From an uncultured virus (IMG/VR IMGVR_UViG_3300026250_000004) (Duplodnaviria; Heunggongvirae; Uroviricota; Caudoviricetes): a DNA stretch of 20,000 bases. The stretch is from the IMG/VR virus record IMGVR_UViG_3300026250_000004; one strand, given 5' to 3'. Numbering within the stretch: the stretch's first letter is position 1; each line of letters opens with the position of its first letter. Shown one piece after another: positions 3,579 through 20,000 of this stretch. The notes under the pieces are model-generated. The model was not told the DNA's origin and did not search any database. It saw only the letters and a program-made list of their open reading frames with translations. The position numbers and the translations under genes were made by a program.

Positions 3579-3995
3579 TTACCTTCCAACTTTATACAGG
3601 CTCGGGTCAACAACTTGCTTAAATCCTTCTTCTGGTAAGCCTATTTCCTCACCTTTGGTTTTGGATTCAGGAACACCTAATTTTTCCAGAGCAGATGCTT
3701 CCCATTTTTCGCCCATTTCTTTGATTTCTTCAATGGACAAAGCAGCAAACATTTTCTTGTAGGTTTCCTCTACAAATTCGTTGCCCATATCACGAACACC
3801 AGATGCTAAAGCAACCCCAATAACATCTTCGCGATACTGCTTGCCAAGTTCTGCCTGTGGATTTAATTCGTCTACTTTAGCCTTGAGTTCTGCTATTTCG
3901 CTATCTTTGGCAGTTAAAGCAGTTTCTTTATCGGCCAATTCAGTTTTTAATTCATCAATCTGCTTCTCAAATGCCAGTTTTTCTTTTTCGTCCAC
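3579..3995 (-). CDS. Nested in-frame scaffolding protein (internal GTG start)
   Basis: The RBS GAAAGGAAGTG (4001-4011), identical to that of the capsid and decoration genes, precedes an in-frame GTG at 3995 at the start of the coiled coil (VDEKEKLAFEKQ...). 138 aa. Confidence 0.6.
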   Translation of the reverse strand: MDEKEKLAFEKQIDELKTELADKETALTAKDSEIAELKAKVDELNPQAELGKQYREDVIGVALASGVRDMGNEFVEETYKKMFAALSIEEIKEMGEKWEASALEKLGVPESKTKGEEIGLPEEGFKQVVDPSLYKVGR

Positions 3996-4982
3996 ATTGT
4001 CACTTCCTTTCGTTGATTTCGCCTTTAGAGCGTCATTTAAAGCCCCATCGAGTGCGTCCACCATGAAGTGTTCGTGTCCTTCGTCTAAAAGTGCTTGTAC
4101 GACCTTCTTGTGTTCTGCGTTCAAACGGGCTTTCGTCCAACCTTCGGGCAATTCCGCTTCTGAGTACATTTGGTGGTAAATCTGATGCAACTCACTTGCA
4201 TCGCGTAGGTTCTCGCTTTCAATTTGGAATGTCGCTGAGGTTGAGGATAAACAACAAAAAACTGGTGCGTCTTTTTTCACCAGTTTTAGGTCTGCTATGT
4301 TGTTGAGCTTTACCATCTTTTCAGTGTTCGGCGGTTTTTCACCACTTGCTGAAAGTCCCAATACCCCTGCATCGGGATAAGCCCCAGCGCAGACGATTGA
4401 GTTTTCTATCATGCAACTGTTATCTGGACGTGGCGGAGGCGCAGGTTTTGCTATTACAGTGCATAACACTTCTTCGCCATCATCCTTATAAACTCTACCG
4501 GGATAATGCCTACAGTTCTCATAGTCCCTTATATCGTTATGGCAAATAGAACATTCAGAAAAACCCCATGATACTGATACAGAGCTATCATGCAGTATGC
4601 CTGCATCTATCTGTTGACTTATATCATCGGTTGTAAAATCTTGTATGTAGGTCTTTGCTCCTTTTGGCATGAACATATTGCCATCTAACTGTACCTTGTC
4701 GCCATCACTTACAAGTTCACCTTCAAAGAACCGGCCAAAAGGTAAAGTAACTTTATCAACCCATGTATTACCGAATGTATGGTCTGCTATCTGCACTACA
4801 TCTCCATTGTTGACATTCGCTAGGTATCTGTCCAACAGCGAAGAGTCAAACTGCAAATATCGGGACGGTATGTAGCCAGTGCCAAGCAGTCTAAACTTGT
4901 GAACATGCACATCGTCAGCACTTAGCGGAGTCTTTGCGAATCGGTTAATTTTCGCTAACTGCGCTTCAGTCGGTTTTGCCAA
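3579..4982 (-). CDS. Prohead maturation protease-scaffold fusion
   Basis: 467 aa. N-terminal protease-like region (DH..PFGRFF; DSSVS..SECSICHND..C.HYPG..Y; ENSIV..GAYPDAG) and C-terminal coiled coil; lies between portal and capsid genes. Confidence 0.8.
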   Translation of the reverse strand: MAKPTEAQLAKINRFAKTPLSADDVHVHKFRLLGTGYIPSRYLQFDSSLLDRYLANVNNGDVVQIADHTFGNTWVDKVTLPFGRFFEGELVSDGDKVQLDGNMFMPKGAKTYIQDFTTDDISQQIDAGILHDSSVSVSWGFSECSICHNDIRDYENCRHYPGRVYKDDGEEVLCTVIAKPAPPPRPDNSCMIENSIVCAGAYPDAGVLGLSASGEKPPNTEKMVKLNNIADLKLVKKDAPVFCCLSSTSATFQIESENLRDASELHQIYHQMYSEAELPEGWTKARLNAEHKKVVQALLDEGHEHFMVDALDGALNDALKAKSTKGSDNVDEKEKLAFEKQIDELKTELADKETALTAKDSEIAELKAKVDELNPQAELGKQYREDVIGVALASGVRDMGNEFVEETYKKMFAALSIEEIKEMGEKWEASALEKLGVPESKTKGEEIGLPEEGFKQVVDPSLYKVGR

Positions 4983-11701: not shown

Positions 11702-12343
11702 TTATCCTCCCACAATCGCCTTCAACTGCCTCAAGCTCTCATCCAACTCCTTGTTGACTATGCAGTAATCAGCTATCCCCAAGTTATCAAATTCACCCGA
11801 ACGAAAAGCATGTCTTACCCTATCCGCTATATTGTCCTCACTGTCACCCCTTGCCCTCATTCGCTCTACCGCTAGTTTGACAGGTACATAGACATAGATA
11901 ACTTTAACCTGTTCGCTGCCGTAAAGAGCCTTGAATTGCTCTACCCCGTGCCTGTCCACTATCGCATAAGCAGAACCATTAGAAGATAAGACTCGCTCGA
12001 CCTCGGCTTTAGATGTGCCATAGCTATTATCGTTATAAACAGTTGACTCAATCATAGGTATTGATCCAAACTGTTCTTTAGTTACAAAGTAATAGGTCAG
12101 TCCTTCAACTTCGCCTTTACGCATCGGTCGAGTTGTTGTGCTAATCAACTCTGGTATTCCCAACTCTTTTAGATAGCAACCGAGCGTTGATTTGCCTGCG
12201 CCGGATGGACCCAATAAAAGGTATAATGTTCTGCTTTTAGGCGGTGGATTAATCCTGCGCCCTAATTCTGCCCATGTGTTTGGCACTGTTCCTGCTGTTA
12301 ATTGCGGTTGCGGCAATGTAAATGTAATTTTACACATAATCAC
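11702..12343 (-). CDS. gmk: Guanylate kinase-like nucleotide monophosphate kinase
   Basis: P-loop GPSGAGKST; guanylate kinase signature STTTRPMRKGEVEGLTYYFV; YGT motif. Confidence 0.88.
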   Translation of the reverse strand: MIMCKITFTLPQPQLTAGTVPNTWAELGRRINPPPKSRTLYLLLGPSGAGKSTLGCYLKELGIPELISTTTRPMRKGEVEGLTYYFVTKEQFGSIPMIESTVYNDNSYGTSKAEVERVLSSNGSAYAIVDRHGVEQFKALYGSEQVKVIYVYVPVKLAVERMRARGDSEDNIADRVRHAFRSGEFDNLGIADYCIVNKELDESLRQLKAIVGG

Positions 12344-13442: not shown

Positions 13443-13643
13443 TTAAAAACCTAACTTCCGTTTAATCCTTTTCCAAAAGGAAACATTCTTCTCGATTATC
13501 ACGACAATCGGCTCTCCTGCCATCACCTTAGCTTCGATGAACTCCTGCAAGTCTGAAAGCAACTGCTCATAGTCTTTCTCTTCTCGCTTTACCGAAAGGG
13601 GAATTATTTTACATCGCTGATTCAATCCATCTGCCTTCTTCAT
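13443..13643 (-). CDS. Hypothetical protein (66 aa)
   Basis: ORF with RBS GGTGGAG, overlapping the end of the GGQ gene. Confidence 0.5.
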   Translation of the reverse strand: MKKADGLNQRCKIIPLSVKREEKDYEQLLSDLQEFIEAKVMAGEPIVVIIEKNVSFWKRIKRKLGF

Positions 13644-13971
13644 CTCGCATCTCCACCTTTAAATTCTCTGGTTGCATAGAACTCTCTACTTCCTGCTTTA
13701 TATCTGCTAATCTGCCCAACCTTTTAGCAACCTCTAGCTTGTACCACTTCTGGAATATCTCTGTTTCGACGCAACGCTTAAAAGCTGTCTGCTGATTATG
13801 CAACCTAGAACGACCTTCTTCGCTTTTGCCAACTGCACCGGATTCAACATGTGTTATACGGCAACAATTTTCAGTTTTGTTTCTCTTTTGGCCTCCCTTG
13901 CCTGTACCACGATAATAGTCAATCCTAAAATCCTTTTTTGTTACCGAAAATAATGGTTGCTTGTTTTCCAT
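13609..13971 (-). CDS. Peptide chain release factor-like GGQ domain protein (ArfB/YaeJ-like peptidyl-tRNA hydrolase domain)
   Basis: DFRIDYYRGTGKGGQKRNKTENCCRITHVESG...GRSRLHNQQTAFKR matches RF domain 3. Confidence 0.85.
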   Translation of the reverse strand: MENKQPLFSVTKKDFRIDYYRGTGKGGQKRNKTENCCRITHVESGAVGKSEEGRSRLHNQQTAFKRCVETEIFQKWYKLEVAKRLGRLADIKQEVESSMQPENLKVEMRDEEGRWIESAM

Positions 13972-13985
13972 AAAATCAACTCCAA

Positions 13986-14010
13986 TAAAAAAAACACTCC
14001 CAAAGAGTGC
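13986..14010 (-). terminator. Intrinsic terminator-like hairpin
   Basis: Minus strand GCACTC-TTTGG-GAGTGT-TTTTTTT. Confidence 0.5.
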
Positions 14011-14075
14011 TAAAATTTTTCTAAAAATATTTTCTGAACCTCAATTCTAAAACATACCCCCACCCATTCGTGGAT

Positions 14076-14423
14076 TTACTTAAATAGCTTGAACATTATC
14101 TTATTAGCCTTATCCATGTTCTTCTGACGATGATATTCCCAGTCTCTACGATACTTTAGAAATGGCTCAACTTTGGTTCTGCTTGTCAACATAACACACA
14201 ACACGCCACATAAATAAAACTTCGCTGCCTTGTTCACACGCTCTCTGCGCCTGTCACTGTTAATGGCTACACAGCTTTCTAGCATGTCTTGAAGGATTAT
14301 GTTAGCTGCACCAATGTTAAGCTCTGCATCTATTATCCTGTCGGACAGTAAAATATCATCTGCTTTTAACATCTCGCGAATTTCATCATGGTAGTTTTCT
14401 CCTAGATAGTTTTTGATGAGCAT
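14076..14423 (-). CDS. Paralog of the head-tail connector protein
   Basis: LLSDRII..AAKFYLCGVLCVMLTSRTKV..RDWEYHRQK aligns with ILPDADI..AVIAQVCALLCTGMAQRVKV..TNWDKKKRE of 1015-1428. Confidence 0.6.
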   Translation of the reverse strand: MLIKNYLGENYHDEIREMLKADDILLSDRIIDAELNIGAANIILQDMLESCVAINSDRRRERVNKAAKFYLCGVLCVMLTSRTKVEPFLKYRRDWEYHRQKNMDKANKIMFKLFK

Positions 14424-14424
14424 T

Positions 14425-14655
14425 TTAAACCTCCATTGAATTTATTAGCTTGGCATATCGCTTATCGGTTAAATAGTCAAGCTCATGCAATATCTCTATC
14501 TGCTCTCTATTTAATCCCTTTATGTGATACCAAAAGAATAAGAAAACAGGGGCATATAATCTTCTGTAGCACCATTGACGATAATACCAGTTTGGAAAGT
14601 TGTATATTGCATCATCTATTGACCTGCCTATAGACCTCCCCACGTCCTCGAACAT
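14425..14655 (-). CDS. Hypothetical protein (76 aa)
   Basis: Strong RBS AAGGAGGTGG; aromatic-rich central segment. Confidence 0.6.
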   Translation of the reverse strand: MFEDVGRSIGRSIDDAIYNFPNWYYRQWCYRRLYAPVFLFFWYHIKGLNREQIEILHELDYLTDKRYAKLINSMEV

Positions 14656-14958
14656 AAAACCACCTCCTTAATAGAGTTTTTGTCGAAAGTCAAAAAACTG
14701 TTGCGAACTGGGAGCGCGCCCTTTGCCGCCGCGCTGACCCCCCTGGCATGTATGGAGTATACCCCCTCCCTCCCCCGCGCTGGCTCTGTCCCTTGCCAAA
14801 AAGGATAGGCTTACCTGCTCGCCGGTCTAATCCTGCCTCTAAAACAAAAACGGTATTATTATCAAATCGCTGAAAAGCCGGTATAATGGGCAGCGCAAAG
14901 AATAGTACCGAAAATAGCTGAAAGCGGTATTAATATTGGAGGTCTGGGCAAGCTAATA

Positions 14959-15378
14959 CTAATCAGCTTGTCGGCTGTCTAATAGTTCTCTGAGTGATGG
15001 GCCTGCATCTATCGTCTGGTTGATGTTTACAGTGGCTGTAGGCACATGTAGCCCGCTCATCTGAAGTATAGTCTGAGCCGCTTGTATATCGCCTGCTATG
15101 GCTCTGGCTGCCACTGACTGCATAGTGGGCATAGCTGCTGATATAGCTGTGACCTTGCAAGCGTCCAGATATGCGGCAACGAAGCGCGGATCCTTGAAAA
15201 GCCGATAGTAGCTATCCCGGCTAATACCTGCCTTTTGGCATATCTGAGAGACGTTGAGCTCCCTTGCTGTTGGCTCTACCAGGACAGCCAGTAGCGCATC
15301 ACCAGCAGGTGTCAAGGTTTCGGCCTTGTCAGTAAGAACCGGAGTGCTAACTAATTTTTCTAATATTTCCTCTTGCAT
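14959..15378 (-). CDS. HTH protein, phBC6A51-like / probable terminase small subunit
   Basis: LNVSQICQKAGISRDSYYRLFKDPRF HTH, then AIAGDIQAAQTILQMSG oligomerisation-type helices typical of TerS-like proteins. Confidence 0.65.
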   Translation of the reverse strand: MQEEILEKLVSTPVLTDKAETLTPAGDALLAVLVEPTARELNVSQICQKAGISRDSYYRLFKDPRFVAAYLDACKVTAISAAMPTMQSVAARAIAGDIQAAQTILQMSGLHVPTATVNINQTIDAGPSLRELLDSRQAD

Positions 15379-15419
15379 AATTATTCACCTACTTGCATAT
15401 TTATTCTACATTATTTTGT

Positions 15420-15520
15420 TCCTTTAGCGCATTAAAGCGTTAAAGCGTTAAAGTTGCTTATCCGGCTTTTATCTATCTTCATCTTACACTATATCCTTTA
15501 GTACACTAAAGCGTTAAAGC
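15420..15520. repeat. Two 27-bp direct repeats with internal palindrome (operator-like)
   Basis: TCCTTTAGCGCATTAAAGCGTTAAAGC (15420-15446) versus TCCTTTAGTACACTAAAGCGTTAAAGC (15494-15520), 3 mismatches. Confidence 0.65.
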
Positions 15521-15564
15521 AAATAGTCTTTTGCTCTGCCAGTTGAATTTTACATAAAGGAAAA

Positions 15565-16551
15565 CTATCTGGTGCAAACACGCTCTAGTAATTCATCTAA
15601 TTCAAACTCGCTTGCATCCTTCAATGTATCCATATATACACTCAAATCCTCAAAAATATGCAATATCGCATCATCTGGATATTTGAGTTCATATTTTTTC
15701 ATAGCAGTAATAATGTCCTGTTCTTCTTGCCCGGTAAATTCTATAGTTTGCTCGAATTTTTCTTTATAGCATCCGATAATGGCGTTAATGTAGCAGAGAT
15801 AGTCTAATCGTTCATTATTCACCTGTGGGTGTTCCGTTTTCTTTTTCTCTTGTTCCTCTTTTGCTATGCGTTCTTTTCGTGCCATTGCAAGTACTTCTTC
15901 TGCATATTTATCGGCATCGGTTATTTTCCCTAAAGGAATAAGTCCGGTTTGTAATTCGGATTCTTCAAAAGAGGATTCTTTTTCTTCTTTGTAACTATAG
16001 GAAACCATAGAGTAACTATTTGAAACTATAGGTAACGTTGTAGTCAAATTGTCTAACTCGATTTGGTCAGATTGACTAAGGTCTGTAGTCAGATTGTCCA
16101 CATCGTTATGGTCAACTTGACTAAATGTCTCTTGCTTATCTTCTGTATTATTCTCCGTATCTGTAGTCAAATTGACTATAGGTATAGTCAAACTGTCCAT
16201 AGTAATTTCTTTTAATCTTTCGTAATCAATCCGATACCATAGCGTCTGGTCGTTCTGGCGGCGGTTGTACTCGTTGGATGTGATTAATATTTTTTGTCCC
16301 CTGAGTTTTTCCAATACTCGTTGGGTCGTTTTTTTGCTCCAAAAAGGAAATTGCCTTGACCAATCTTCAAGACTGTTAAAAGTCCAGTAATGATCGTCAT
16401 AGAAGTTCTTTTCGGCTTTTTCGTTGGCTTTTATCCAGTACTCTATCTGCTGTAACACGATTGCTTCCTGTAGCCCAATCTTACAGGCTATTTCTTCGCT
16501 AAAATACCTTAATATTGGTATTTCGGGATTGTTTCTTTTTTTCTTTGCCAT
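15565..16551 (-). CDS. Phage replication initiator (N-terminal winged HTH)
   Basis: IGLQEAIVLQQIEYW..DDHYWTFNSLEDWSRQFPFWSKKTTQRVLEKL..DQTLWYRIDY N-terminal domain; iteron array in the central linker. Confidence 0.85.
   Translation of the reverse strand: MAKKKRNNPEIPILRYFSEEIACKIGLQEAIVLQQIEYWIKANEKAEKNFYDDHYWTFNSLEDWSRQFPFWSKKTTQRVLEKLRGQKILITSNEYNRRQNDQTLWYRIDYERLKEITMDSLTIPIVNLTTDTENNTEDKQETFSQVDHNDVDNLTTDLSQSDQIELDNLTTTLPIVSNSYSMVSYSYKEEKESSFEESELQTGLIPLGKITDADKYAEEVLAMARKERIAKEEQEKKKTEHPQVNNERLDYLCYINAIIGCYKEKFEQTIEFTGQEEQDIITAMKKYELKYPDDAILHIFEDLSVYMDTLKDASEFELDELLERVCTR
16041..16199. repeat. Six 15-bp palindromic iterons (TRGTCA-N3-TGWCYA), probable replication origin
   Basis: Copies start at 16041, 16064, 16086, 16109, 16164 and 16185. 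Confidence 0.8.
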
Positions 16552-16575
16552 CTCTTTACCTGCCTTTCAAGTAAA

Positions 16576-16654
16576 CAGCCTTAAAATATTTAAACGGGCA
16601 GGCGGCAAGGCTAACCGCTTTTCGGCCCGGATGATCAGTCCAGACCTAGCCCGC
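16576..16654 (-). ncRNA. C4/c4-2-like structured RNA element (copy 2) upstream of the replication initiator
   Basis: GCGGGC TAG GTCTGGA CTGATCA TCCGGGC CGAAAA GCGGT TAGCCT TGCCGC CT GCCCGT; loop TAGCCTT is complementary to AAGGCTG at 16576-16582. Confidence 0.6.
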
Positions 16655-16665
16655 AAAAATGCATA

Positions 16666-16690
16666 TAAAAAGCCGCCCTTTCGAGCGGCT
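16666..16690 (-). terminator. Intrinsic terminator in the initiator leader
   Basis: Minus strand AGCCGCTC-GAAA-GGGCGGCT-TTTTA. Confidence 0.65.
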
Positions 16691-16897
16691 CGCTACCTCT
16701 ATGATTTTTTTCTCTCCTGACAACTCTCTCTAGTATATACTATATATGCATATTTTCTGCTTGTATAGGCGGGAAACGTGCGATAGGCGTGTAAAAAACG
16801 TGCAGTTTTTGATTTTTGACCTGGCAGAGGCGGCGGCTTGCATTTTTTGCTTCTGGTGCGTACAATATACATATATACTTTTTGGAGGTTTTTGAAA

Positions 16898-17095
16898 ATG
16901 GCCATAAAAGATGGACGTTTATTCCTGCGCTTTGACCCGGCGGAGAAGGCGCGGCTGGAAAAGCTGGCTGAAGAATTTGCAAAACTGCGGCCGGAGGGAG
17001 CTTATACCGTGTCAAGTATCTGCCGGGCTGCGATATTTGAGAAAATGGACGAGATGGAAAAGGAGCTCAAAGCCCTGAAAAAGCCCGGAAAATAG
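16898..17095 (+). CDS. Ribbon-helix-helix (CopG/Arc-like) transcriptional regulator, 65 aa
   Basis: RBS GGAGG, ATG 16898; RLFLRF strand, AEKARLEKLAEE helix, TVSSICRAAIFE helix; divergent from the initiator gene. Confidence 0.7.
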   Translation: MAIKDGRLFLRFDPAEKARLEKLAEEFAKLRPEGAYTVSSICRAAIFEKMDEMEKELKALKKPGK

Positions 17096-17125
17096 CAGTT
17101 TTGCTATGCATTGCCGCACCCTGTT

Positions 17126-17155
17126 GGCTGCCTTTTGGTGGCCTTTTTTGTTTTT
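17126..17155 (+). terminator. Intrinsic terminator after the RHH gene
   Basis: GGCTGCC-TTTT-GGTGGCC-TTTTTTGTTTTT. Confidence 0.6.
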
Positions 17156-17254
17156 GCAAGATAAATACCTTAAAAACTTTTCGACAAATTTATACAATGC
17201 CTATATATCGGGCTTTGCGAGCATCCGGAAAATAAAAATAATACCGTTTTAGTG

Positions 17255-17283
17255 TTGACAGCGTGCGCACTAGGGTATATAAT
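17255..17283 (+). promoter_or_regulatory. Consensus sigma-70/sigma-A early promoter
   Basis: TTGACA (17255-17260), 17-bp spacer, TATAAT (17278-17283), with an A/T-rich UP-like tract upstream. Confidence 0.9.
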
Positions 17284-17350
17284 ATAGTCAAGAGGTACAC
17301 AAACAGCCCGGCAGCTCTCAGGGAGCGGGGCAGGAAAGGGAGGATATGGG

Positions 17351-17737
17351 ATGGAAAAGAAATTTATTGGTATTGTTAAGGATGACATGAAAACTCTGGA
17401 TACCCAGTATACCGGCAAATTCGCAACCTATAAGGAAGCCCATGAAGCAGCCGAGAAACTCTGCAAGCGGACCTATGGCGACCGGGGCAGCATTGACGTT
17501 ATCGACATTACCCTGAATTTCGCACCAGCCGGGACCTGGTGGAACGGAGGCCAGGAACAGATTGAAAAAGACGGCAAAACCTACGCCCTGTACGGCTGGA
17601 ACGGTGAAAGCTATACGGACTCTTGGCAGGTAATTGACCGCACCGAATTTGCCGGGAAATATGACATCTGCCCGGTTTATCAGCAGACAGGCGAAGATGA
17701 ATTTGAGATCGTTGACTATGAGATCAGGGAAAGATAA
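17351..17737 (+). CDS. Acidic early protein with WW..GWNGES domain (candidate anti-defence protein)
   Basis: First gene after the promoter, RBS GGGAGG; C-terminal ~70 aa homologous to the C-terminus of 19003-19797. Confidence 0.75.
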   Translation: MEKKFIGIVKDDMKTLDTQYTGKFATYKEAHEAAEKLCKRTYGDRGSIDVIDITLNFAPAGTWWNGGQEQIEKDGKTYALYGWNGESYTDSWQVIDRTEFAGKYDICPVYQQTGEDEFEIVDYEIRER

Positions 17738-17738
17738 T

Positions 17739-17794
17739 CGCAGAGTGACGGGCCATCCGGCCCGGTAATGCGGCAAGCCGGTCACAAGCCCGGC
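17739..17794 (+). ncRNA. Twister self-cleaving ribozyme, circularly permuted (P5-type topology)
   Basis: CGCA GA GUGA CGGGCC-AUCC-GGCCCG G UAA UGCG GC AA GCCGG UCAC AA GC CCGGC: P1, P2, P4, pseudoknots T1 and T2, the conserved UAA and the catalytic GA are all present. Confidence 0.88.
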
Positions 17795-17823
17795 TAAAGC
17801 CCAAAATGAAAGGGGATAGAAGC

Positions 17824-18045
17824 ATGACTCACGAACAGATGATAGAAAAAGCATGGAGATTTATTTATGACTTACAGATCACCGACGAAAAAGAAAAACT
17901 CACAGATGAAGGTTATTTGGTGGAAAACGTTTATCAAGTTCGCGATGCTTACTACGCTGATTTGGAAAGCGGCCACGACTTTGACGGGGAAGATCTGGAA
18001 GGCTTTTTCGCCCGGCACGGCATCAAAGAGATCTGCGAGAGATAA
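17824..18045 (+). CDS. Small acidic hypothetical protein (73 aa)
   Basis: RBS AAAGGGG, ATG 17824; Asp/Glu-rich. Confidence 0.7.
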   Translation: MTHEQMIEKAWRFIYDLQITDEKEKLTDEGYLVENVYQVRDAYYADLESGHDFDGEDLEGFFARHGIKEICER

Positions 18046-18229
18046 TTTCCCGCCTTTCCTCAGCCCGCCGCATACCTGGCGGGTTGAGATAAGGGCAGGA
18101 AGCCCTTAGGTGCGCCGCTAGCCCTTACAGTTAGGACCGGCACCAGCACAAGCCGCCGCATAGTACCGTCTATGCACGCCGGGGCGGGATAAAATACCGG
18201 CTTATTATCAAATCTCAGGAGGTACGAAA

Positions 18230-18757
18230 ATGAAAATCACCAACGAGCAGCTAATCCAAATTGCCGCAGTTGACGCAGGCCTCGACCCGTTCGGCGAATA
18301 CCTAACCCGCGACGGGTGGAAGGTAAAAGGTTATAAGGTTCTCAGGGGCGAAAAGCCGGCCCTAGTGCTGGACCTCTGGTGTCCGAGAATCCGCAAATCC
18401 TCAGTAGCGAGCGAAAATGCGGAACCTCAGCAGGGAGAAGAAAAGCCCGGAATGTTCTTCCACTTTAAGACCTGTCACTTGTTCGGCAGAGAGCAGACAA
18501 ACGCACTAGAAAGGGAACGTCTTGCCCAACAAACCGCTGCGCTCCGTATCTATCACGCTTATCACCAGCACAATCCCGAAACCGGATATTTAGAAATTGT
18601 AAAGGGTGCGCCAGAAGTAGCTAAAGTAGCGGCTGAATGGATTAAAACTAGTAAATTAGGCAGTTATATATTCCCGATTGATTTTGTCCAGGCTGAAAAA
18701 GATTTAAAAGAGCAACCGGCAATCAACCAAGGCGCATTGTTTGAAATGGCGATGTAA
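18230..18757 (+). CDS. ArdC-like ssDNA-binding/anti-restriction-related protein
   Basis: YLTRDGWKVKGYKVLRGEKP..LW..FHFKTCHLFGREQT resembles the T..QW...G..V.KGEK...VF...QT core of the ArdC N-terminal domain; RBS AGGAGGT. Confidence 0.55.
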   Translation: MKITNEQLIQIAAVDAGLDPFGEYLTRDGWKVKGYKVLRGEKPALVLDLWCPRIRKSSVASENAEPQQGEEKPGMFFHFKTCHLFGREQTNALERERLAQQTAALRIYHAYHQHNPETGYLEIVKGAPEVAKVAAEWIKTSKLGSYIFPIDFVQAEKDLKEQPAINQGALFEMAM

Positions 18758-18772
18758 GGAGGGGGAAAGAGA

Positions 18773-18904
18773 ATGAAGGAAATTAAAACCTTTTGCAAAA
18801 AATGCCAGTGTTTAGGGATTGATTGCACGGGGATATCTGTTTCAACCGGATTTACGGGATGTATTTATTTTAACAAAACGGAAAAGGCTCAGCCTGCCAG
18901 CTAA
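18773..18904 (+). CDS. Small Cys-rich protein (43 aa)
   Basis: Below the track threshold; RBS AAGGAGGGGG; MKEIKTFCKKCQCLGIDCTGISVSTGFTGCIYFNKTEKAQPAS. Confidence 0.6.
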   Translation: MKEIKTFCKKCQCLGIDCTGISVSTGFTGCIYFNKTEKAQPAS

Positions 18905-19002
18905 GCCAATCCCTCAGAACCACAAGCCGGGGCGAGTGATCCATCACAAGCTCATTTTACCCCGGCTCAGTAAAAAAATCAAATTTGAAAGGGGTAATTG
19001 GA

Positions 19003-19797
19003 ATGGCATATTTTAGCAAAGAAGCATACGAAGGTAAAGAAAGATGGGCGAGAAACCGCATGAGAGAAAATAGTGAGGTTCCAACTTTGTCACCGGAACA
19101 GCATGAGACTTTAGCTTGGTTGTGTACGATCAGGCACGAAATGCATTGCAGTCCAGACAGTTTCTGGGTTGGTGAGTCGGGAGAATACTCTGAATACTGG
19201 GATTATATTGGAAACTCATATGAGGACTCTAAAATTAACGAACAATTAAACGAAGTAGGTTTAAAATCCATACCGTTAATAACTGATACCGAACATATAA
19301 TGGCAGACTATGAAGTTTTCGAGGAATGGGGAGTCGAAAACTTACAAGCATACTATGGACTGCCTGAAGATTATACTGACGAAGACATAGACGAAGCAGC
19401 AGAAAAAGCCAAAGAAGTATTATATGAATTATTGGAACAGACTGACGAAATCATCAGAAAATATCTGGCTGAAATTGATTTAGAATTCGGGACAAATTAT
19501 TGCCCTGGTGGGATGGAGGAGTATGTCTCTGTGCCTGATAGCAGTCCATTTTTCCGGGTTGTTGGTAAATGGTGGGAAGATAAGACCGTTGAGATTATCG
19601 AAAAAGACGGTATCTATTACGGACTAAAGGGTTGGAATGGCGAGTCCTTCGCTGACTCGTTCGTGTTTTATGTAGACGACTATACTCAGGAAACTGAGAT
19701 AGAAGAAGGATATATAATCACTCCTGAATATGATGATGACAATAAATTAATGGATTATATCATCAGGGATGACGAGGTAGAGGACGAGGAGGACTAA
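19003..19797 (+). CDS. acrVA1: AcrVA1-like anti-CRISPR protein fused to a C-terminal acidic WW..GWNGES domain
   Basis: FSKEAYEGKERWARNRMRENSEVPTLSPEQHETLAWLCTIRHEMH and IRKYLAEIDLEFGTNYCPGG match my recollection of AcrVA1 (MSKAMYEAKERYAKKKMQEN..TLTDEQHDALAQLCAFRHKFH ... IEKYLRRIDEEHGTQYCPTG). Start placed at ATG 19003 (RBS AAAGGGGT). Confidence 0.8.
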   Translation: MAYFSKEAYEGKERWARNRMRENSEVPTLSPEQHETLAWLCTIRHEMHCSPDSFWVGESGEYSEYWDYIGNSYEDSKINEQLNEVGLKSIPLITDTEHIMADYEVFEEWGVENLQAYYGLPEDYTDEDIDEAAEKAKEVLYELLEQTDEIIRKYLAEIDLEFGTNYCPGGMEEYVSVPDSSPFFRVVGKWWEDKTVEIIEKDGIYYGLKGWNGESFADSFVFYVDDYTQETEIEEGYIITPEYDDDNKLMDYIIRDDEVEDEED

Positions 19798-19924
19798 AAT
19801 ACCAAACCGCCCCCGGTGGGCTATAGCCCGGTATCTACAAGAGTAGAAATTAAAATCCGGAGGCGGTAAATAAATTGTATCAAGTATATTTAATATTGTC
19901 AATCACTCAGAAGGAAGGGAAACT

Positions 19925-20000
19925 ATGCAAAACAAAGCAGATATAAAGCTAGACTATGCCACAAATGAGGTTTTTGTTTTAGACAAAAAAGGCAAAGAGG
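19925..20000 (+). CDS. Start of next early gene (partial)
   Basis: RBS AGGAAGGGA then ATG 19925, open to the window end (MQNKADIKLDYATNEVFVLDKKGKE). Confidence 0.55.
   Translation, partial: MQNKADIKLDYATNEVFVLDKKGKE

Follow-up and report, generated by a model that had tools for sequence, protein, structure and literature searches.

An AcrVA1-family domain fused in a tailed phage to a small acidic domain from a largely stand-alone family

We analyzed a stretch of 20,000 nucleotides from an uncultured virus (IMG/VR record IMGVR_UViG_3300026250_000004), hereafter the window, which belongs to a tailed phage. The minus strand carries genes for the head, portal, terminase, and replication, and small plus-strand genes run from about position 17,250. 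One of these encodes P0001, in which a domain related to the Cas12a inhibitor AcrVA1 is followed by a second domain that we refer to as GWNGE. The following features bear on P0001:

17255–17283, plus strand: putative sigma-70/sigma-A promoter heading the small-gene region, by consensus only (12/12 match)
17351–17737, plus strand: second fusion in the window, a 55-aa unknown N-terminal part and a paralogous GWNGE domain (17519–17734), by similarity to the P0001 domain
18230–18757, plus strand: neighboring gene with a weak ArdC-N (anti-restriction) match (PF08401, E 0.0048, below the cut-off; phrog_7245, anti-restriction, E 1.8e-4)
18987–18994, plus strand: Shine-Dalgarno (SD) sequence of the main start, ATG 19003 (anti-SD duplex −12.4 kcal/mol)
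19003–19797, plus strand: whole fused open reading frame, P0001, 264 aa (program ORF and translation)
19003–19512, plus strand: AcrVA1-family domain, residues 1–170, all-helical (sequence and fold match)
19132–19146, plus strand: R44-H45-x-x-H48, equivalent to AcrVA1 R41/H42/H45 by alignment
19306–19311, plus strand: D102-Y103, aligned to AcrVA1 D95-S96 of the Cas12a-binding loop (D kept, S replaced by Y)
19515–19533, plus strand: internal SD sequence (19515–19521) and in-frame GTG, V177 (19531–19533; anti-SD duplex −11.3 kcal/mol)
19543–19770, plus strand: GWNGE domain, residues ~181–256, six beta strands (57 family matches; model)
19771–19794, plus strand: acidic tail of 8 residues, from the sequence (model of low confidence at 262–264)

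The alternative TTG start at 18985 had an anti-SD duplex score of only −1.3, where all such scores use what we take to be the anti-SD sequence. A single contig of run X9 covered positions 18969–19860 with no differences from the window, leaving the fused frame intact, and locus L020 carries the identical 264-aa frame in a different upstream gene context. These two observations argue that the fused reading frame is real and not an assembly slip, although the year and habitat of X9 match possible source runs, and X9 and L020 perhaps belong to one sampling campaign. The 1,241 bases at 18760–20000 are identical between L020 and the window, such that the fused frame sits on a cassette present in two phage backbones. 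One contig from an RNA library (X10) covers 19554–19788 only and another (X11) covers 19546–19790; both leave out the junction, and this missing cover is uninformative. Variants among the X11 and X12 contigs affected 10 codons (4 synonymous and 6 non-synonymous), too few to weigh.

P0001 lies in a variable island of small genes, and those upstream of it are swapped in L020. When L020 1–4580 was compared with window 14000–18760, the segments common to both were 16661–17363 (95%) and 18760–20000 (100%). This sibling backbone differs in its early genes and in a replication-side gene, which points to cassette exchange. Downstream, L020 encodes DUF3560, DarA_C, a tyrosine recombinase, and two HTH genes. 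Domains of the ArdC-N and DarA types are described in the available text of PMC5512222 as early counter-defense modules. The best terminase matches were to Faecalibacterium, Clostridium, and Bacillus phages (40–46%), and by this likeness the host is probably a member of the Bacillota. Hence, the original prediction of a Firmicutes phage gains indirect backing from the head and packaging genes and from phage relatives, but not at the level of the host itself.

Residues 5–171 of P0001 matched AcrVA1 in the PDB (6nmd_B, E 1.5e-22; 6nmc_B, E 1.1e-19), with the next match at E 1.2, and the AcrVA1 family profile matched the domain at E 8.4e-50. The match extends over the whole domain at about 36–41% identity to AcrVA1. 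A model based on an alignment of 78 AcrVA1-family proteins had pLDDT of 85–97 per block across residues 1–170. Searching the PDB by Foldseek at E ≤ 0.001 with the full-length model returned 6nmc_B alone (E 1.1e-5, TM 0.79 over the target, rmsd 4.3), a comparison that uses a predicted model and a structure older than the predictor. Thus, likeness to AcrVA1 along the whole domain, as originally proposed, held up by profile and by fold. The motifs on which that proposal relied are all in the translation, and P0001 keeps the catalytic triad intact as R44-H45-H48. In AcrVA1, mutation of the equivalent residues nearly abolishes crRNA cleavage, which requires docking on Cas12a, according to the available sections of PMC11471075. 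The RHxxH motif was found in 152/152 AcrVA1-family proteins examined, whose median length was 164 aa.

Beyond the TxYxPxG motif that ends the AcrVA1 family, P0001 continues for another 94 residues. This part is acidic (29 D/E versus 7 K/R; pI 4.05), and its folded core agrees with the extra acidic domain predicted from near 19550, though the AcrVA1 part is acidic too (pI 4.21). Modeled alone, the GWNGE domain is compact and all-beta with a pLDDT of 93.5. An alignment search recovered 57 relatives among 217 candidates of 39–151 aa, whereas a word search with the C-terminal domain alone returned nothing. Sixteen viral and five genome loci were found in addition, and all of the named ones are from Bacillota. 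Stand-alone relatives include Brevibacillus phage Sundance gp177 (ALA47993.1; 79 aa), which shares 37–40% with the domain and is annotated as hypothetical, and two hypothetical proteins with no recorded function on Bacillus cereus plasmids (ACJ82582.1 and WP_236802701.1). We examined 59 proteins, comprising the 57 matches of that size-limited search, one plasmid protein, and the query. In 49 of these, any N-terminal extension is shorter than 25 aa, and stand-alone members measure 64–100 aa. GWNGE therefore folds independently and belongs to a family of its own, most of whose members stand alone.

No family in Pfam, PHROG, or NCBIfam names the GWNGE domain. Its sole clear structural match was an uncharacterized viral protein (BFVD A0A8S5VJT4; E 2.4e-4, TM 0.78). 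Foldseek found nothing among solved structures at E ≤ 0.001, and a wide VIA search found 0 of 48,161 chains at Z ≥ 5, its best match being a kinase N-lobe (Z 4.5, rmsd 3.4, 62 aligned); a second VIA look reached Z 3.5 at best. These fold searches establish neither a new nor a different fold. The ESM Atlas contributed unnamed clusters only, under 0.9. We rejected a Kelch-repeat identity because its profile score came from a 25-residue stretch summed across repeats.

The genes around GWNGE loci offered few names. Across 20 loci, 11 of 99 neighbors had a Pfam match, HTH_59 appeared in 3 loci, and none of the 99 was a named Acr, while a weak ArdA match and Gp111 genes lie near some loci. Among 401 genomes of G003's phylum, GWNGE was found in one, the seed genome. 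Cas12a was matched in 0/5 GWNGE-bearing genomes, a result made uninformative by an equally silent control, and Cas1 (3/5) and full Cas8c (2/3) are too few to weigh. The open-access literature yielded no mention of GWNGE accessions, and its motif had no match in three supplements, where the AcrVA1 control motif also failed wherever it was tried. The family is thus new relative to open-access literature, Pfam, PHROG, and NCBIfam, and it may equal a recently named inhibitor. The original suggestion of a second, undescribed anti-defense module stands as far as a separate folded domain with its own family is concerned, while its anti-defense part draws on context only. We put the chance that GWNGE is a new stand-alone anti-defense family at slightly short of even.

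The junction between the two domains carries a candidate gene start. The SD sequence of V177 lies directly after the AcrVA1 end motif and is as strong as those of the region's true starts (−10.2 to −12.5). Of the 199 in-frame internal start codons in 23 window ORFs, just two, V177 among them, reached −11. The second is codon 330 of 3579–4982 (minus strand), where a strong internal SD and GTG precede a coiled-coil tail, presumably in an internally started head scaffold protein. The spacing from SD to start at V177 is ~3–5 nt longer than at true starts and the SD is predicted to be paired within a −14.6 kcal/mol hairpin, so the site may be a silent relic. Its case is weakened further by the fact that SD-like sites are likelier in acidic proteins owing to Glu-Glu codons. 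Judged by its sequence, V177 may be either a relic or a second start. Joint alignments of the AcrVA1 and GWNGE families misaligned the GWNGE rows, leaving the full-length model with depth in the N-terminal domain only, so its low confidence at 172–221 is silent on the linker. We found no long DNA repeat that would explain domain shuffling.

A strong SD and in-frame GTG at the junction suggest that neighboring genes fused by read-through. The same signature, in support of joined genes, occurs in a Siminovitchia fortis prophage (L004/L026), where the GWNGE start has an SD and ATG at −10.4 kcal/mol; it was absent from four further GWNGE fusions checked, including the window paralog. The prophage frame (779–1477) joins a C-terminal fragment of Cas8c (Csd1), an HTH, and GWNGE, and that fragment is the sole Csd1 match in the S. 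fortis genome. An Acr homologous to the C-terminal domain of Cas8b, AcrIB4, is described in the available text of PMC13131331.

The reading that we favor, with a probability of roughly 0.6, is that P0001 cleaves Cas12a crRNA in the manner of AcrVA1 and bears a small acidic passenger that acts independently and may also be produced free. Two neighboring early phage genes would have been joined when the stop and final few codons of acrVA1 were lost. That gene would then have read in frame into a downstream, once separate GWNGE gene, whose ribosome binding site and GTG survive. We infer this direction of fusion, and any use of the internal start, from the anatomy of the junction. An unfused acrVA1-GWNGE pair was not seen, as GWNGE was nearby in 0/5 other AcrVA1 loci and present in 0/4 other AcrVA1 virus records. 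Cas12a is the most likely target: the N-terminal domain would dock on crRNA-loaded Cas12a, at its PAM-binding pocket, and cut the crRNA spacer via R44/H45/H48, as AcrVA1 does. The passenger, probably anti-defense by its context, would most likely fold and act alone as a small acidic inhibitor of another host defense or early host process. A short linker would tether it, and a free 88-aa form starting at V177 is also possible.

An alternative that we judge unlikely is that a recent stop-codon loss joined the domains without selected benefit, with the nuclease hindered, the gene decaying, or only free GWNGE mattering. The fusion is indeed confined to one lineage: the fused-protein cluster has 2 members, and a metagenome scan found 1 full-length locus. 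Both domains also depart from conserved sites. In the AcrVA1 domain these are N148D, E152R, and the terminal R173E, where N, E, and R occur in 133, 136, and 137 of the best 150 family matches, and in GWNGE they are V196, G207, and F220 (I, A, and W in the family). Set against decay, P0001 keeps 8/8 invariant columns of the 78-sequence alignment, and its frame is unchanged across two phage backbones. Moreover, the same N-to-D, E-to-R, and lost-Arg set recurs elsewhere: all 8 sequences with R152 are without the terminal Arg, and 6 of the 8 form a separate clade (support 0.997). The set looks like compensation for a lost tail contact. Long C-terminal extensions are also tolerated by other family members. 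At least 40 residues outside the AcrVA1 domain were found in 8 of the best 150 matches, namely P0001, four proteins of 589–1904 aa, two of 314–557 aa, and one with an apparent frameshifted tail.

It is distinctly unlikely, in our estimation, that the AcrVA1 family has a wider role as an RNA nuclease module and that the natural target of P0001 is something other than Cas12a, a view under which the passenger would still be independent. The family comprises 371 clusters at 50% identity (E ≤ 0.001), of which details were obtained for the best 150. Four members (P0014, P0094, P0035, and P0144) place an AcrVA1 domain with intact RHxxH in polyvalent-type proteins of 589–1904 aa, where partners across the group are ART-PolyVal, DNA methylase, hemerythrin, or DUF3140; ART-PolyVal stands beside the domain in P0014 and P0094. 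Such company favors a broader role, as does the fact that invariant positions are only structural or catalytic. Speaking for Cas12a, the sole characterized member is a broad Cas12a inhibitor acting on Acidaminococcus and Lachnospiraceae Cas12a among others, according to the available text of PMC7556299. P0001 matches that member in sequence and fold over the whole domain, and stand-alone homologs adjoin HTH genes. The Cas12a-binding pair D95/S96 (same source) is kept as to D95, whose equivalent occurs in 62% of 143 aligned family rows, while that of S96 occurs in just 13%. Identity to an AcrVA1-proximal protein, P0064, is 50% over 5–50 and 47% over 141–170, but falls to 28% over 51–100 and 17% over 101–140. 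With S96 replaced and the middle divergent, the Cas12a interface may have changed. A predicted complex of residues 1–171 with AsCas12a 1–825, omitting crRNA, scored 0.00 against a mark of 0.32, which is uninformative either way. As a further arrangement, L024 5803–6612 has a ~65-aa N-terminal extension to its AcrVA1 domain and lies in a core metabolic gene setting on a 161-kb virus contig.

The partners of GWNGE elsewhere bear on what the domain does in P0001. N-terminal extensions of at least 25 aa occurred in 10/59 GWNGE proteins: three RHH regulators, two with a domain of the 17824–18045 type, the window's own 17351–17737, three with unknown leaders, and P0001. All three RHH fusions retain a Met at the domain start, and RHH proteins can serve as Acr-associated regulators, as stated in the available text of PMC13551039. 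The window paralog is 38% identical to the P0001 domain over 86 aa (E 3e-11). It lies on a different branch of the domain tree and has no internal start; P0001 GWNGE instead groups with stand-alone P0173 and P0181 (support 0.85). Positions 17824–18045 (plus strand) encode a 73-aa acidic orphan that is its own gene here and the N-terminal fusion partner of GWNGE in P0196 and P0197, with 78% identity to their leader domain.

The original prediction had offered, as one option, that the appended domain retargets the nuclease: GWNGE would serve for binding and would deliver the RHxxH nuclease to a different RNA-guided effector, such as another Cas12 subtype, Cas9, or Cascade, or to another ribonucleoprotein. 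This is very improbable despite the divergent middle of the AcrVA1 domain beside its conserved catalytic helix, the propensity of a large family to join other domains, and the one GWNGE clade fused to four different partners with the internal start absent, since the pairing occurs in 1 of the best 150 AcrVA1 matches (P0001 alone matching the GWNGE profile), elsewhere GWNGE is joined to various unrelated partners (RHH, HTH, or small domains of unknown kind), none of them a nuclease, and an internal start stands at the junction. A tether alone may also not suffice, because crRNA cleavage by AcrVA1 requires that it be docked on Cas12a. We give equally little credence to a wider version, in which the RHxxH domain is a portable, widespread guide-RNA nuclease and GWNGE a swappable aiming module that is also supplied free through the internal start. 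Should retargeting prove true, P0001 would exemplify a natural way to direct a guide-RNA nuclease against CRISPR effectors other than Cas12a.

Under the favored reading of a Cas12a nuclease with an independent passenger, P0001 resembles several known systems in part. It shares with AcrVA1 of Moraxella bovoculi (6NMD, 6NMC) the helical fold, R/H/H triad, D95 equivalent, and acidity. Unlike AcrVA1, it has a 94-residue C-terminal extension, lacks S96 and the terminal Arg, diverges in the middle, and comes from a phage of a probable Bacillota host, with nuclease activity predicted from its sequence. AcrIE4-F7, in which a flexible linker connects two independent Acrs according to the available portion of PMC8887544, is likewise built from two acidic domains of small size, both of which also occur as separate proteins, with a short linker between them. 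Both of its domains are proven Acrs, whereas P0001 has a known relative for one domain and retains an internal start. Phage and conjugative-element polyvalent proteins, as presented in the accessible text of PMC5512222, likewise string early conflict domains together, and P0001 has ArdC-N-like, DarA_C, and DUF3560 neighbors; in contrast, P0001 has two domains in 264 aa, neither of which is in a Pfam polyvalent-protein family.

AcrVA1 homologs and fused Acrs are already known. By 2019, eight AcrVA1 homologs had been counted in IMG/VR, five of them adjoining HTH genes, and gut and marine virus homologs were listed, per the available sections of PMC6739104. Given that list and the 371 clusters, the surprise first attached to AcrVA1 outside of Moraxella was overstated. 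We found no natural AcrVA1 fusion in open-access literature, relative to which the joining of AcrVA1 to GWNGE, the GWNGE family itself, and the presence of AcrVA1 domains within polyvalent-type proteins are new. AcrVA1 was found in 0/2 candidate stretches of a genome scan and 0/401 genomes of G003's phylum, and a search of plasmids gave no match. Viral scans with P0001, the window paralog, P0173, and P0024 as queries returned no matches, and neither domain is present in the closest virus record (G001), a 32% fragment.

These results give the lone characterized crRNA-cleaving Cas12a inhibitor a family of hundreds of divergent members, some of which are in polyvalent-type proteins, and supply in P0001 a natural variant from a probable Bacillota phage that is open to testing. 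The real lead from this gene is the uncharacterized GWNGE family, for which fusion to AcrVA1 is the strongest link to anti-defense so far. Fusion with AcrVA1 in P0001, and with a Cas8c fragment and HTH in the S. fortis prophage, makes GWNGE a good candidate for an inhibitor screen.

Several minor features lie in the same window. A Type-P5 twister ribozyme (17739–17793, plus strand; Rfam RF02684, 67.4 bits versus 37.6) sits between early genes, two bases beyond where the paralogous GWNGE fusion stops, and similar sequence recurs in several X11/X12 contigs. An int-alpA RNA motif (16579–16656, minus strand; RF02996, 41.5 bits versus 35.8) lies just upstream of the replication initiator gene. Finally, 13609–13971 (minus strand) encodes an RF-1-domain protein resembling peptide release or ribosome rescue factors (PF00472, E 1.7e-15), near a guanylate kinase-like gene (11702–12343).
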